DNA from: a virus
Lineage: Duplodnaviria > Heunggongvirae > Uroviricota > Caudoviricetes
Length of the DNA stretch: 37,753 nucleotides
Direction: 5' to 3' (one strand)
IMG/VR virus record: IMGVR_UViG_2687453319_000001
A model generated the notes under the pieces. It had not been told where the DNA came from. It searched no databases and saw only the letters and a list, made by a program, of their open reading frames with translations. Of this stretch, positions 371-37,753 are shown one piece after another. A program made the translations under genes and the position numbers. Numbering within the stretch: position 1 is the stretch's first letter; each line of letters starts with the position of its first letter.

Positions 371-371
371 C

Positions 372-404
372 GCGATAAATGCACTCTATCTTGTGCGATA
401 AATG
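372..404. repeat. Two direct copies of GCGATAAATG (372-381, 395-404) near the prophage/host junction; candidate terminal transposase-binding repeats
   Basis: Exact 10-bp direct repeat 23 bp apart, located between the host NRPS-like frame and the invertase gene end. Confidence 0.3.
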
Positions 405-438
405 GCATCCACGCGGCGTTTCATTATTTGAAAAAGAA

Positions 439-1011
439 TTACATTTCAGGTTGCGTTATGACAGTCCCAACAGGGTGATAGCGGTAGATCGTTGACAGTC
501 CAATATCATAGATAATTGCCAGCCGCTTTCTGTCATACCCTTTCTGGAGCAATCTTGCGATCTGCTCATGCTGCTCCTTCGTCAGTTTCGGGCGACGTCC
601 TCCAACTCTTCCTTGTGCTCGCGCAGCAGCCAGTCCTGCCAGCGTGCGCTCAACTATCAGTTCACGCTCCATTTCTGCCAGTGCACCCATCATATGAAAA
701 AAGAACCTTCCCATCGGAGTGCTGGTATCGATTGAATCCGTCAGACTGCGAAAATTGACACCTTTTGCGCGTAGCTCTTCTGTGAGAGCAATGAGGTGTT
801 TCATTCTTCTACCCAACCGATCCAGCTTCCAGACCACCAATGTATCCCCTCTTTTAAGGCACTTTAAAGCGCGTTTCAGGCCTGGTCGTTCCGACTTGGT
901 TCCGCTCATTTTGTCCTCAAAAATCTGTTCACATCCTGCGCACATTAATGCATTGCGTTGCAAATCTGTGTTTTGGTCATTTGTTGACACACGTATGTAG
1001 CCAATCAGCAT
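439..1011 (-). CDS. Serine recombinase, DNA invertase of the Gin/Pin/Hin/Cin family
   Basis: ORF 439..1140 with likely start at Met44 (1011). Translation [22 protein letters not shown]...[14 protein letters not shown]...[24 protein letters not shown] matches the resolvase/invertase catalytic domain with the active-site Ser in RVST; sits next to the invertible fiber cassettes. Confidence 0.93.
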
Positions 1012-1065
1012 TAAAAATACTCCCTTTTGAGTGGTTAAAGTACTGAGATAATGTGGGGAGGATTT

Positions 1066-1091
1066 GAGAGATAAACGTTGGTTTGGGGGAA
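1066..1091 (+). other. gix/hix-like crossover site 1 (core AAACG-TT-GGTTTGGGGG), at start of a ~210-bp conserved junction repeat
   Basis: Sequence gagagataaacgTTggtttgggggaa; imperfect dyad resembling the Hin/Gin AAACC-AA-GGTTT core; inverted relative to sites 2 and 3. Confidence 0.6.
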
Positions 1092-1556
1092 GGCTCTGCA
1101 TTGCCTGTTGGTGTACCGGTTCCATGGCCCACCGCCACACCGCCAGCAGGCTGGTTACAGTGCAACGGAGCTACGTTCACCAAAGAACAATATCCTGTTC
1201 TGGCCAGAGTCTACCCGACCCTCCGTCTTCCCGATTTACGCGGTGAGTTTATCCGTGGATGGGACGACGGGCGCAAGATTGACGAGGGGCGTAAGTTGCT
1301 TTCATGGCAGAAAGGTACACTGGTCGGCGGTCATGACGATAACGATTCTTCGCTTGATATCTCGTACATGAGTAACGGAAATAATATTGACTATGGCGGC
1401 GATAAGGTGTTTGCGGGGAATTACCGTAGCGATTATTTGTGGTACGTAATTCTGGGAGGAACAAACAGTCGCGCAAAAGCCGAATTAAACGGAGCATTCT
1501 TTAACATAACCCGCCCCCGCAATATCGCGTTTAACTATATCGTGAGGGCGGCGTGA
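1083..1556 (+). CDS. Tail fiber C-terminal variable cassette A (silent in current orientation)
   Basis: Begins inside the crossover repeat (LGEGSALPVGVPVPWPTATPPAGWL..., no ATG; the ORF track start is a TTG). Conserved ~70 aa N-terminal junction shared with cassettes B and C; ends NIAFNYIVRAA, like lambda Stf / P2 H C-termini. Confidence 0.8.
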   Translation: MGEGSALPVGVPVPWPTATPPAGWLQCNGATFTKEQYPVLARVYPTLRLPDLRGEFIRGWDDGRKIDEGRKLLSWQKGTLVGGHDDNDSSLDISYMSNGNNIDYGGDKVFAGNYRSDYLWYVILGGTNSRAKAELNGAFFNITRPRNIAFNYIVRAA

Positions 1557-1562
1557 TACCGT

Positions 1563-35608: not shown

Positions 35609-35622
35609 CCGGGAGGCATTCA

Positions 35623-35838
35623 ATGGCTGACATACTCAGGGAAATCACCGCATGGATACTGATTCTTACTGGCCTGGCGACATGCCTCAGTGCGGGGGCA
35701 GCCCTGGCTGCCCTGCTGATGCACATAACAACACAGTGGTTATGGGAAAAGCTTAAAGCAGCATACAGCCTGAAAGAGCTGTCCGACGCTGTCCGGGCAT
35801 GGAAACGGCAGAAAAATACCGGAGATACAGAACAATGA
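35623..35838 (+). CDS. Small membrane protein
   Basis: 71 aa with one TM (ITAWILILTGLATCLSAGAALAALL). Confidence 0.35.
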   Translation: MADILREITAWILILTGLATCLSAGAALAALLMHITTQWLWEKLKAAYSLKELSDAVRAWKRQKNTGDTEQ

Positions 35839-36518
35839 CAGACCAGAATAAACACATTGAGAAACTGAAAAAGTTGCTGGCGCTGGCCGCATCCGGCAAC
35901 CCGCACGAGGCCGCTCTGGCACTGCGCCGAGCCCGTAAACTGATGGATGTTCACGGCATCACACATTCCGACATTGCTATGAGTGATATTGATGAAACCA
36001 TCAGTCACTACTGGCCGACAGGCAGTCTCCGTCCACCGCGCTACATGCTGGGCCTGATGAACATCATCCGCGAGGTATTTGGTGTTAACTCCATCATTCA
36101 CCCCGGCACGCATCCGTCTGTGGGGTTCTACGGCAACCGGGAACGTGCGGCACTGGCTGCATACACCTGGGAAGTGCTGGCCCGTCAGCTGAAAAAGGCG
36201 CGTCAGCAGTATATCAGTGCACAGAACAAAAGAATAAAAACCGCCACCCGCACCAGCCGTGGAGACCAGTTTGCCGAAGGCTGGGTGCTGGCCGTTATCA
36301 GTGAAATACAGTCCTTTGCCCTGACCGATGATGAGCGTGAACTGATGCAGCAGTGGCTGGAACATAAATACCCGCAGACGCAAACCACCAGGGCGCGTAA
36401 ACCGGGAAGAAGCCGCAATGGCGACGCCTCGCGCTATGCGGGGTTTCGTGAAGGGCAGAACGTCAGACTGCACCGCCCGGTCAGTGGGCAGGAACAACAG
36501 AAACTGGAGGCCAGATGA
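35835..36518 (+). CDS. Hypothetical early protein (DUF2786-like N-terminus)
   Basis: Start at internal Met with GGAGA RBS; N-terminal KHIEKLKKLLALAASGNPHEAALALRRARKLM motif common in phage proteins of unknown function. Confidence 0.45.
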   Translation: MTDQNKHIEKLKKLLALAASGNPHEAALALRRARKLMDVHGITHSDIAMSDIDETISHYWPTGSLRPPRYMLGLMNIIREVFGVNSIIHPGTHPSVGFYGNRERAALAAYTWEVLARQLKKARQQYISAQNKRIKTATRTSRGDQFAEGWVLAVISEIQSFALTDDERELMQQWLEHKYPQTQTTRARKPGRSRNGDASRYAGFREGQNVRLHRPVSGQEQQKLEAR

Positions 36519-36745
36519 TTACGCTATCAGGTAAAAGCCGGAAATTAAAAGCCTGCCGAATATCTGCCAGATACCTTTTTGCCCGCGCCTTTTTTAAGAA
36601 CGTCAGGCCGGGGATCACAATTGGTGTTATTGCCGGACGCGAACAGGTTGAAAAATACATGTCAGGTGCATGGTGGAATAACGACCCTGTCATTGCTGCC
36701 CGTAATATTCATATCGAATGGGGAGGTATTCAGAATGACTACTGA
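36515..36745 (+). CDS. Hypothetical early protein
   Basis: 76-aa ORF, GGAGG RBS. Confidence 0.35.
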   Translation: MITLSGKSRKLKACRISARYLFARAFFKNVRPGITIGVIAGREQVEKYMSGAWWNNDPVIAARNIHIEWGGIQNDY

Positions 36746-36941
36746 AACCATTGTCTGTTTTCTTTTCTGGTATATGTACGCAGGATCATGCAGCGCAAGA
36801 CTTCATCGTTCCCTGGGCTATGGCAGGCACTACGACACCGCGCATTACATCCTGTACATGACCGCCGTCATGTTGTTCTGGCCAGTCACCCTGCCAGCTG
36901 CAACCGACATTGTTGCCGACAGACTGAAAAAAAGGAGATGA
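36735..36941 (+). CDS. Small membrane protein
   Basis: 68 aa starting at ATG 36735 (GGGAGG RBS), two hydrophobic segments. Confidence 0.35.
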   Translation: MTTETIVCFLFWYMYAGSCSARLHRSLGYGRHYDTAHYILYMTAVMLFWPVTLPAATDIVADRLKKRR

Positions 36942-36942
36942 T

Positions 36943-37392
36943 ATGCAGAAAAAACGCCTGATACAGCTTATCCATATTGCCCGTAATGAACTGGGTATGG
37001 ATGAAGACACCTACCGCCAGATGTTACAGGGGCTGACCGGTAAAGCCTCAACCAAAGGAATGGATACCACACAACTAAACTGCGTGCTGGAATCCATGAA
37101 AAAGAAAGGCTTTCGCGTTAAACCAGCCAGAAAAGCCAGCTCCGGTTTACCGCTGGATAACCATCCGCAGTCCAGGAAAATTCGTGCGCTATGGCTTGAA
37201 ATGGCTGCTGCCGGCATTGTTCGTGACCGTTCAGAAAATGCATTAGCGAGGTGGATCAAGCGGGAAACGGGCATCAGCGCCCTGCGCTGGCTCAGTACTG
37301 AACAGGCAAGCAGTGTTATTGAGAAACTGAAGAAGTGGCAGCGCAGAGCTGCGGGAGTCAAACATGAGCGACCTGAATCAGTTTCGAAGTAA
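36943..37392 (+). CDS. gemA: GemA-like regulatory protein (Mu gp16 family)
   Basis: 149 aa; LIQLIHIARNELGMDEDTYRQMLQGLTGKAS...QSRKIRALWLEMAAAGIVRD...ARWIKRETGISALRWLSTEQASSVIEKLKKW parallels Mu GemA. Confidence 0.8.
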   Translation: MQKKRLIQLIHIARNELGMDEDTYRQMLQGLTGKASTKGMDTTQLNCVLESMKKKGFRVKPARKASSGLPLDNHPQSRKIRALWLEMAAAGIVRDRSENALARWIKRETGISALRWLSTEQASSVIEKLKKWQRRAAGVKHERPESVSK

Positions 37393-37753
37393 GGGGCCGG
37401 AACTCCTGGTGGAACTGGCACAGCATACCTCTGAGACCGTTCGCGAGATTATTGATATTGAGCCCGAAGTTGCCGACCAGATTGGTCAGGCCGTCGCGAA
37501 CCGAATGATGCAGGTCTGGGGCGGGCAAAACGTTTATTTCCCGATGGGCATGGTATGGAAGGTCAGTCAGCGCGACCGGGAAATCTTCAGGGAGTTTAAC
37601 GGACGCAACCACCACGAACTGGCCCGCAAATTTGGTGTTTCGCTTCAGTGGGTCTACAGCGTGGTTAAGCGGGTAAGAAAAGAAGAACTGGATCGGATGC
37701 AGGGCAAGCTATTTGCTGATGAACCCGATGCAGATACGGAGAAAAAAGAGTAA
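37364..37753 (+). CDS. mor: Mor-like middle-operon transcriptional activator
   Basis: 129 aa; ...GGQNVYFPMG...REIFREFNGRNHHELARKFGVSLQWVYSVVKRVRK matches the Mor/C family C-terminal HTH region; follows gemA as in Mu. Confidence 0.85.
   Translation: MSDLNQFRSKGPELLVELAQHTSETVREIIDIEPEVADQIGQAVANRMMQVWGGQNVYFPMGMVWKVSQRDREIFREFNGRNHHELARKFGVSLQWVYSVVKRVRKEELDRMQGKLFADEPDADTEKKE

Follow-up and report, generated by a model that had tools for sequence, protein, structure and literature searches.

We identify positions 361-37753 of IMG/VR record IMGVR_UViG_2687453319_000001 (a stretch of DNA of 37,753 nucleotides, analysed over its full length and hereafter referred to as the window) as a BcepMu-like transposable myovirus prophage of Escherichia coli that is complete except for its last 162 bp and has transposed into irp2. 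We put the probability of this reading at about 0.9, and no evidence contradicts the BcepMu-type identification. All early genes lie on the + strand (29487-37753) and all late genes on the - strand (26675 down to 1563), with the repressor gene at the interface of the two divergent blocks. Because this is the standard layout of the BcepMu family, the strand-divergent organization is ordinary and not odd. The kind of phage is already known, and public phage and RefSeq databases already contain the same phage; the only part of our analysis that may be new is an explicit model of the late promoters, in which one Mor/C-family protein would activate four late operons directly.

The 53 proteins were compared with both Mu and BcepMu by tblastn; a preliminary description made from the letters of the window had suggested whole-genome alignments to these phages. 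Thirty-eight of the proteins have BcepMu homologues (31-76% identity), whose gene order is perfectly collinear though reversed, whereas nine match Mu. The first late operon (19420..26675) contains homologues of BcepMu gp21-gp31 (32-67% identity), followed by the head and neck genes (gp32-gp38; 44-53%), the tail shaft genes (9591..15622; gp39-gp44) and the baseplate and fibre genes (2700..9591; gp45-gp52; 46-63%, order kept). The genes of the early operon, called using Pfam, PHROGs and homology to BcepMu gp01-gp16, likewise occur in order. The transposase is 68% identical to BcepMu gp09, 69% to its phiE255 counterpart and 57% to that of Pseudomonas phage B3; the transposition ATPase is 59% identical to BcepMu gp08, and the repressor 39% identical to gp17. 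Both prophage termini align with those of BcepMu; the aligned parts include the GMGATAWWT repeats (positions 12-20 and 35-43). TG...CA termini typify the BcepMu-type group (PMC2628397), for which two opposite-strand clusters, lysogeny control at their interface, a lysis cassette followed by head and tail genes, a P2-like tail and a terminal CA have been described (PMC2771037); the prophage agrees with this description in every respect. What sets the B3 group apart from Mu and D3112 is an inverted early operon (PMC5977238).

The preliminary description had placed the prophage with BcepMu-type phages and apart from canonical Mu, on the grounds that early genes run rightward and late genes leftward from an internal repressor region. 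Strands and repressor position agree with this, and the call is correct because the divergent layout is the one published for BcepMu and B3. Its Gam, GemA and Mor are confirmed by Pfam (Table 1), as is the Mu/P2-like order of head and tail genes, with head and packaging genes of Mu type and tail genes of P2 type. The invertase does lie next to a genome end, 78 bp from it, and tblastn with Mu com and mom returned nothing; the prophage starts at 361, however, not at 371 as had been given.

BcepMu and phiE255 (both Bcepmuvirus) share with the E. coli phage the divergent clusters, lysogeny control at the interface, an rve transposase and an ExeA-like ATPase. Also shared are the holin-SLT-Rz cassette, the Mu-type terminase, portal, F and G, the P2-type tail, the TG...CA ends and homologous subterminal repeats. 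Where BcepMu has an acyltransferase, in contrast, the E. coli phage carries a Gin-type invertase with a three-site invertible region, and it differs in its Mu-like Gam, its DUF2786/DUF7168 gene and other small early genes, and its repressor-side morons. BcepMu has no inversion system (PMC2771037).

Mu is likewise a transposable myovirus with Gam, GemA, a Mor/C activator, TerL, F, portal and G, and with Gin and gix-like sites near one genome end. Its matches in the window are Gin (76% identity), Gam (62%), TerL (49%), F (48%), GemA (36%) and Mor (30%), together with weak ones to G, portal and J; the tail fibre contains an additional 35-residue patch matching Mu. The E. coli phage differs from Mu in its inverted early block, internal repressor, single activator (Mor and C in Mu), P2-type rather than Mu-type tail, and three crossover sites rather than two. 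No homologues of MuA, MuB, c, ner, com or mom were found at E < 0.1. The prophage is therefore not a Muvirus in the strict sense, given these absences, the internal repressor and the single Mor/C protein. Likeness to P2 is confined to the tail module, in which the order sheath FI, tube FII, E, T, U, X, D, V, W, J, I, H and fibre assembly is shared; no other P2 genes are present. The Pseudomonas phage B3 group shares a homologous transposase and B protein and the inverted early operon, but its members are siphoviruses with another tail module, and the class of their late-promoter box appears different.

BcepMu was reportedly described by Summer et al. in 2004, and its group is said to have been proposed as a genus in 2009. 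In current phage taxonomy, the genus-level criterion is high genome-wide nucleotide identity. It weighs against our reading that nucleotide identity to BcepMu is too low for megablast, by which the whole window gave no BcepMu or phiE255 DNA match. Membership of Bcepmuvirus under the strict nucleotide criterion is doubtful because of this, although NCBI files the closely related phage PhiKM there.

The limits of the element were established from complete copies. In E. coli GN03204, the identical sequence is annotated as a prophage splitting irp2, and the prophage is 37,566 bp in length at this site (37,566-37,569 bp across five complete copies). Both junctions were checked for five independent insertions (in irp2, yehY, yehK-yehI, an ABC-ATPase gene and ydiV-selO), all of which have identical ends, 5'-TG...CA-3', and perfect 6-bp target duplications (CTCAGG, GCAGGG, GCTGGT, AGTAAT and TTAGGA). 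The duplication in Mu is 5 bp. A sixth insertion site, known from a prophage-prediction record, adjoins aroA in sequence type ST131. The element inserts at many chromosomal sites, nearly at random. In BcepMu-like phages, replicative transposition and headful packaging yield virion DNA flanked by random host DNA; for the E. coli phage, the many insertion sites and the Mu-type TerS, TerL and portal are the only hints, and indirect ones, that it may do likewise. The identical irp2 insertion occurs in four complete genomes (Eco889, GN03204, AVS0575 and Z0117EC0055; window 1-360, GN03204 locus L001 39931-40574). As irp2, a gene of the high-pathogenicity island, is split by the prophage, strains carrying this insertion should be yersiniabactin-negative.

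The strand switch, together with a drop in GC content from about 0.58 to 0.43-0.46 at 27-30 kb, might be explained if the window joined two prophages or were misassembled at 26.7-29.5 kb, a possibility raised in the preliminary description; the PhiKM and KP12 phages are indeed unaligned over part of this stretch. However, hundreds of complete genomes contain the stretch unchanged, with the same junctions and the same order of genes, a single pair of 6-bp duplications brackets the entire 37.6 kb, and both halves are collinear with one phage, BcepMu. The low-GC block is a swappable moron/immunity module. We consider the chance of a chimera negligible, and this explanation can be set aside in favour of one continuous BcepMu-like prophage.

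By megablast, many complete E. coli genomes contain the window at 99.9-100% identity. At least 80% of its left 25 kb is held by 338 of 5,426 complete E. coli genomes, and at least 80% of its right 12.7 kb by 526 of the 5,426; carriage of the prophage amounts to about 10%, or about one genome in ten. Among phage records, Escherichia phage PhiKM (PQ738613; Bcepmuvirus in NCBI taxonomy) is 97-99% identical over 82-85% of the window, the record being partial and permuted, and Klebsiella phage KP12 clone KP12_2 (OM835952) and Phi06_2974 B (KM389306) are 85-89% identical. All three share the gene order of the window, and KP12 also the terminal invertase, whereas the immunity/moron region and the distal tail fibre differ; PhiKM and KP12 have a Dam methylase and other open reading frames (ORFs) there. 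KP12_2 (OM835952.1), a BcepMu-type phage, is filed under Vequintavirinae, an unrelated subfamily. A match to 'Escherichia phage Entero_P88' (PV468777.1 36093-40277) that starts exactly at 361 was considered as a shared P2-like module and rejected, because that prophage-prediction record holds host serC and aroA together with the first 1.7 kb of the prophage. We found no dedicated description of the E. coli phage in the literature; the papers located mention Bcepmuvirus prophages only in passing, in E. coli ST131 or among induced gut phages.

The window copy itself carries frameshifts in eight late genes, which, read literally, make it defective and also count against an intact prophage. It could accordingly be a decaying element whose frameshifts are real mutations: eleven single-base deletions fall within the prophage relative to otherwise identical copies, and ORFs are broken by them. 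We regard this as improbable. Relative to GN03204 (L001), the window has no substitutions and 15 missing bases, 12 of which are a single G or C lost from a G/C run of 4-6 (positions 67, 3197, 4472, 4587, 6644, 10991, 11120, 12966, 13582, 18852, 20516 and 22348); one of these lies in host irp2. This is the signature of assembly error and not of decay, and the remaining 3-base gap is natural variation. The frameshifts are best read as long-read assembly errors in the window copy of the BcepMu-like prophage, and the splitting of the ORFs for the tail fibre, W, tape measure, chaperone, protease/scaffold, F and TerL is ascribed to these homopolymer errors. All protein analyses were based on the clean copies L001 and L004. 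Two of the genes contain in-frame repeats: tail fibre H has about 6.5 tandem copies of a 56-amino-acid (168-bp) unit at 3377-4465, and the tape measure gene has 261-bp repeats at 10192-10991. The tape measure gene is labelled a pseudogene in several RefSeq assemblies, probably as a result of assembly trouble in the repeats.

The repressor gene sits between the two blocks, and a predicted early promoter, Pe, points away from it into the early operon; the Pe hexamers match the sigma-70 consensus at 11 of 12 positions. They enclose a perfect palindrome, found nowhere else in the window at 0 mismatches, which may plausibly serve the divergent repressor as its operator; further copies that could serve as extra operators were not found in the window above chance. 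The repressor would close rightward Pe through this operator. A 10-mer, TATCACATAT, is present at 29441-29450, just past the Pe -10, and a second time at 29698-29707, between the Ner-like gene and the regulator that follows it. Both may be binding sites of the Ner-like protein. On induction, an 8.3-kb early operon would be transcribed rightward to the genome end. The prophage moves by means of an rve transposase and an ExeA-like AAA+ partner. The transposase has the Pfam rve domain without MuA-specific domains, and a search against PDB sequences gave only weak matches to retroviral integrase cores and none to MuA or TnsB. The transposase of the BcepMu group has been related to the Tn552/IS1604 type (PMC2771037, PMC2628397). 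Among 80 relatives of the transposase, which come from Enterobacterales, Burkholderiales, Neisseriales and Pseudomonadales, most have upstream late genes on the opposite strand and GemA and Mor as the last genes. Four (L040, L042, L046 and L070) are co-directional as in Mu: holin, terminase and portal follow Mor on its own strand. A single transposase lineage therefore contains both layouts.

The last gene of the early operon is the sole Mor/C-family ORF in the 37.6 kb: Mu Mor, Mu C and BcepMu gp01 all match this ORF. It is 30-32% identical to the Mu proteins and equidistant from the solved structures (Mu C, E = 3.5e-9; Mu Mor, E = 3.8e-9; PDB). The preliminary description had expected both the right end and a C-like late activator beyond 37753. 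The right end does lie there, but only a trivial 162 bp away, the window terminating precisely at the stop codon of this last gene; as for the activator, the expectation is wrong, because 162 bp is too short to fit a gene. A canonical Mu-like phage with a three-step cascade, in which Mor would act on a middle promoter only, with C and further genes beyond the right edge of the window, could be proposed from the Pfam name 'Mor' of the last ORF and from the middle operon with C that follows mor in Mu. The junction sequences refute such a cascade. In all five complete copies the prophage ends 162 bp past the Mor stop and is followed directly by the 6-bp duplication and host genes, the single homologue is as near to C as to Mor, and BcepMu has the same lone gene, gp01, annotated as late activator, as the last gene at the same end. 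In the simplest model, this one activator at the end of a BcepMu-type early operon would itself switch on the late genes, in a two-step early-late cascade that would contrast with the early-middle-late cascade of Mu; the promoter boxes described next, and their conservation in relatives, suggest this.

Candidate sites for this protein occur in four gaps of the late block, upstream of the holin, protease/scaffold I, tail chaperone and W genes (P_lys, P_I, P_TAC and P_W). Each is an element YTTAA-N6-TTAAW-ATC, whose first 16 bp form a dyad (YTTAA-N6-TTAAW), placed exactly 22 nt before a -10-like hexamer, NAWRCT. The pattern is found five times in the window, against 0.24 expected, and four of the five are on the late strand upstream of late operons. 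The mapped Mor site at Mu Pm consists of two 5-bp inverted repeats with a G/C-rich 6-nt spacer, is centred at -43.5 and replaces the -35 (PMC4390567). The putative boxes share this 5-6-5 dyad architecture, and Pm reads AGTAAAGCCGGTTAATCC, which resembles the box; the C-dependent promoters of Mu look different. The Mor-family protein would bind the dyad in place of the -35 element and turn on the four leftward promoters.

To examine conservation of the boxes, we used IMG/VR relatives, including some whose proteins are only about 50% identical. The distance from box to start codon is kept for I (74 nt), the chaperone (62-77 nt) and W (50-52 nt). The P_TAC box is conserved in 59 distinct upstream sequences, and the P_lys box lies 49-71 nt upstream of the holin in 18 of about 20 Enterobacterales genomic relatives, where it is usually the sole match in a locus of 16-21 kb. 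In BcepMu, boxes of the GTAAAGCCGATTAAAAG type precede gp21, gp32 and gp49, and in the last of the four orthologous gaps, at gp41, the match is unclear; GTAAAGCCGATTAAAAG itself occupies the place equivalent to P_I, and the P_W box at 50-52 nt is likewise present. The strict enterobacterial pattern fails in Burkholderiales and in Pseudomonas-type relatives, where inspection revealed clade-specific variants rather than absence: the box class shifts with the divergence of Mor, to CTAAANCNGATTAAAAGACC in Burkholderiales and TTTGCCCCCGTTCAAAWTAC in the Pseudomonas-type relatives. The predicted P_W -10 hexamer ends 6 nt before the annotated W ATG, both in the window (6705-6720) and in BcepMu (L002 30770-30825); the W mRNA may therefore be leaderless or nearly so, or the W start may be misassigned.

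Some points tell against this promoter model. The four sites that the pattern recovers in the window are those from which it was built, and conservation is its only independent support; the predicted -10 hexamers are weak; and the regulatory mechanism is deduced from sequence. The boxes might instead be sites for another factor (a winged helix-turn-helix (wHTH), Ner-like or host protein), with the late genes read through from one promoter. Being A/T-rich, they could serve as UP-like or IHF-like elements, and a clear terminator-like hairpin stands upstream of P_I only. We nevertheless consider this alternative unlikely: the architecture of the boxes and their distance to the -10 equal those of the mapped Mu site (PMC4390567), their sequence resembles Pm, all four front late operons on the late strand, and their class co-varies with Mor across clades. 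We put somewhat better than even odds on the full model, in which one Mor/C protein would directly activate four late operons in a two-tier scheme, the box would co-evolve with its activator across Enterobacterales, Burkholderiales and Pseudomonas-type relatives, and the hairpin at the genome midpoint would perhaps be more than a terminator.

This hairpin separates G from I and is followed by a U-tract. Its core, TTTATAAAGG, does not vary across an alignment of 13 diverse relatives including BcepMu, and the hairpin stands at 0.50 of the genome, the position of the strong gyrase site in Mu. The conservative reading is a terminator; the hairpin could also be the counterpart of the central strong gyrase site of Mu.

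At the opposite end of the late block, inverted and direct repeats delimit an invertible tail-fibre region with three gix-like crossover sites, one tail-fibre assembly gene and three alternative fibre C-termini, one of which is currently fused to the fibre. The Gin-like invertase would shuffle the three C-termini and so switch host range. Strain p11B (L007 1678-5289) carries a different permutation, reachable by two inversions, and the inversion system is therefore active in nature. P1 Cin, Mu Gin and p15B Min (Din family) likewise combine a serine invertase with gix/cix-like 26-bp sites at which fibre C-termini are fused. The Gin system has two sites and the Min system six; the arrangement described here, with three sites, three C-termini and one assembly gene, is intermediate between them.

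The positions of all features are given in Table 1.

Table 1 Features of the prophage and its flank, in order along the window
Feature	Position	Strand	Evidence or remark
Host irp2 fragment (yersiniabactin synthetase HMWP2)	1..360	-	RefSeq annotation of identical locus
Target-site duplication copy CTCAGG	355-360		Last 6 host bases; repeated at other junction
Prophage end, tail-fibre/invertase side	361..438		Begins 5'-TG; sequence start TGATGCGCC
Subterminal repeats GCGATAAATG	372-381, 395-404		Putative transposase binding sites
Gin/Cin-type serine invertase, 190 aa	439-1011	-	Pfam Resolvase and HTH_7
Invertible tail-fibre region	1070..3215		Inverted and direct repeats of 218-231 nt at 90-92%
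gix-like crossover sites	1070-1091 (+), 2681-2703 (-), 3195-3215 (-)		TT core; aligned with Mu gix
Alternative fibre C-termini	2700-3197 (-), 2177-2695 (-), 1083-1556 (+)		First currently fused
Tail-fibre assembly gene, lambda-K-type	1563-2177	-	Caudo_TAP
H tail fibre	2700-4691	-	Pfam Phage_fiber_2/Collar; 56-aa tandem repeats
I (tail)	4694-5272	-	Pfam Tail_P2_I
J	5265-6368	-	Pfam Baseplate_J
W	6359-6705	-	Pfam GPW_gp25
Putative Mor box P_W CTTAAACGCCTTTAATAT	6738..6755	-	AATACT 22 nt on
V	6760-7356	-	Pfam Phage_base_V
D	7353-8507	-	Pfam Phage_GPD
X	8495-8707	-	Pfam Phage_tail_X
U	8707-9591	-	Pfam P2_GpU
Tape measure	9591-12801	-	NCBIfam
E-type assembly chaperone	12959-13293	-	Pfam Phage_TAC_7
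Putative Mor box P_TAC CTTAATCTCCTTTAATAT	13347..13364	-	CATACT 22 nt on
93-aa ORF	13391-13671	-	
Tube FII	13674-14198	-	Pfam Phage_tube
Sheath	14195-15622	-	Pfam Phage_sheath_1
Head/neck genes	15612..19205	-	Also DUF2190 decoration (Phage_cement_2), Phage_Mu_Gp36 adaptor, Gp37, 83-aa ORF
Major capsid	17123-18076	-	Pfam Phage_cap_E
Protease/scaffold I	18091-19205	-	
Putative Mor box P_I TCTAAAGCAGATTAAAAT	19262..19279	-	CAAACT 22 nt on
Terminator-like hairpin and U-tract	19339..19376	-	Fold -23.5 kcal/mol, z = -3.2
G	19420-19878	-	Pfam Phage_tail_S
Mu F	19881-20701	-	Pfam Phage_Mu_F
Mu-type portal	20682-22178	-	Pfam Portal_Mu
TerL	22178-23718	-	
Mu gp27-type small terminase	23769-24314	-	Pfam Phage_Mu_Gp27
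Rz-like protein	24948-25598	-	Plus two small ORFs in operon
SLT endolysin	25582-26322	-	Pfam SLT
Holin	26325-26675	-	Pfam Holin_2-3
Putative Mor box P_lys CTTAACGCGCTTTAAAAT	26727..26744	-	GATGCT 22 nt on
Moron ORF, 158 aa	26806-27282	+	P-loop-like
Moron ORF, 193 aa	27320-27901	-	Two transmembrane segments, glycine-zipper; hydropathy
Moron ORF, 328 aa	27992-28978	-	Single-pass membrane protein; start overlaps repressor stop codon
Lysogeny repressor, cI/Cro-type HTH, 153 aa	28975-29436	-	Pfam HTH_31/HTH_3; without peptidase domain
Early promoter Pe, TTGACA-17-CATAAT	29411..29439	+	Predicted
Operator candidate TGAGAAC-AATA-GTTCTCA	29418-29435		Perfect palindrome
Ner-like HTH	29487-29675	+	Early operon
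wHTH regulator	29728-30036	+	Early operon
DUF3102 protein	30047-30961	+	Early operon
rve DDE transposase	30965-32734	+	Pfam rve only
ExeA/AAA_22 transposition ATPase	32745-33911	+	Pfam AAA_22
Gam	34211-34741	+	Pfam E 1e-40
DUF2786/DUF7168 ORF	35835-36518	+	Early operon; one of several small ORFs
GemA	36943-37392	+	Pfam E 8e-41
Mor/C-family activator, last early gene	37364-37753	+	Pfam Mor E 1e-43

The moron block (26806..28978; GC content 0.43-0.46) lies between the two gene clusters and is swapped for other genes in PhiKM and KP12. One of its membrane proteins appears to be co-transcribed with the repressor. Searches of the three moron ORFs and several early ORFs against PADLOC, Pfam and NCBIfam returned no defence system and no known family, and their PHROGs are of unknown function; the moron ORFs are candidates for lysogenic conversion or superinfection exclusion. 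Scans of the window for tRNAs and with Rfam gave no hits.

The value of these findings is mainly one of tidying: a layout that looks odd beside Mu is standard for a second, widespread lineage of transposable phages. Annotators of such prophages need not seek a missing C gene, nor read the strand switch as a misassembly. We did not find the regulation of this phage group mapped in the literature, and the predicted Mor boxes would provide it with simple, testable late promoters.

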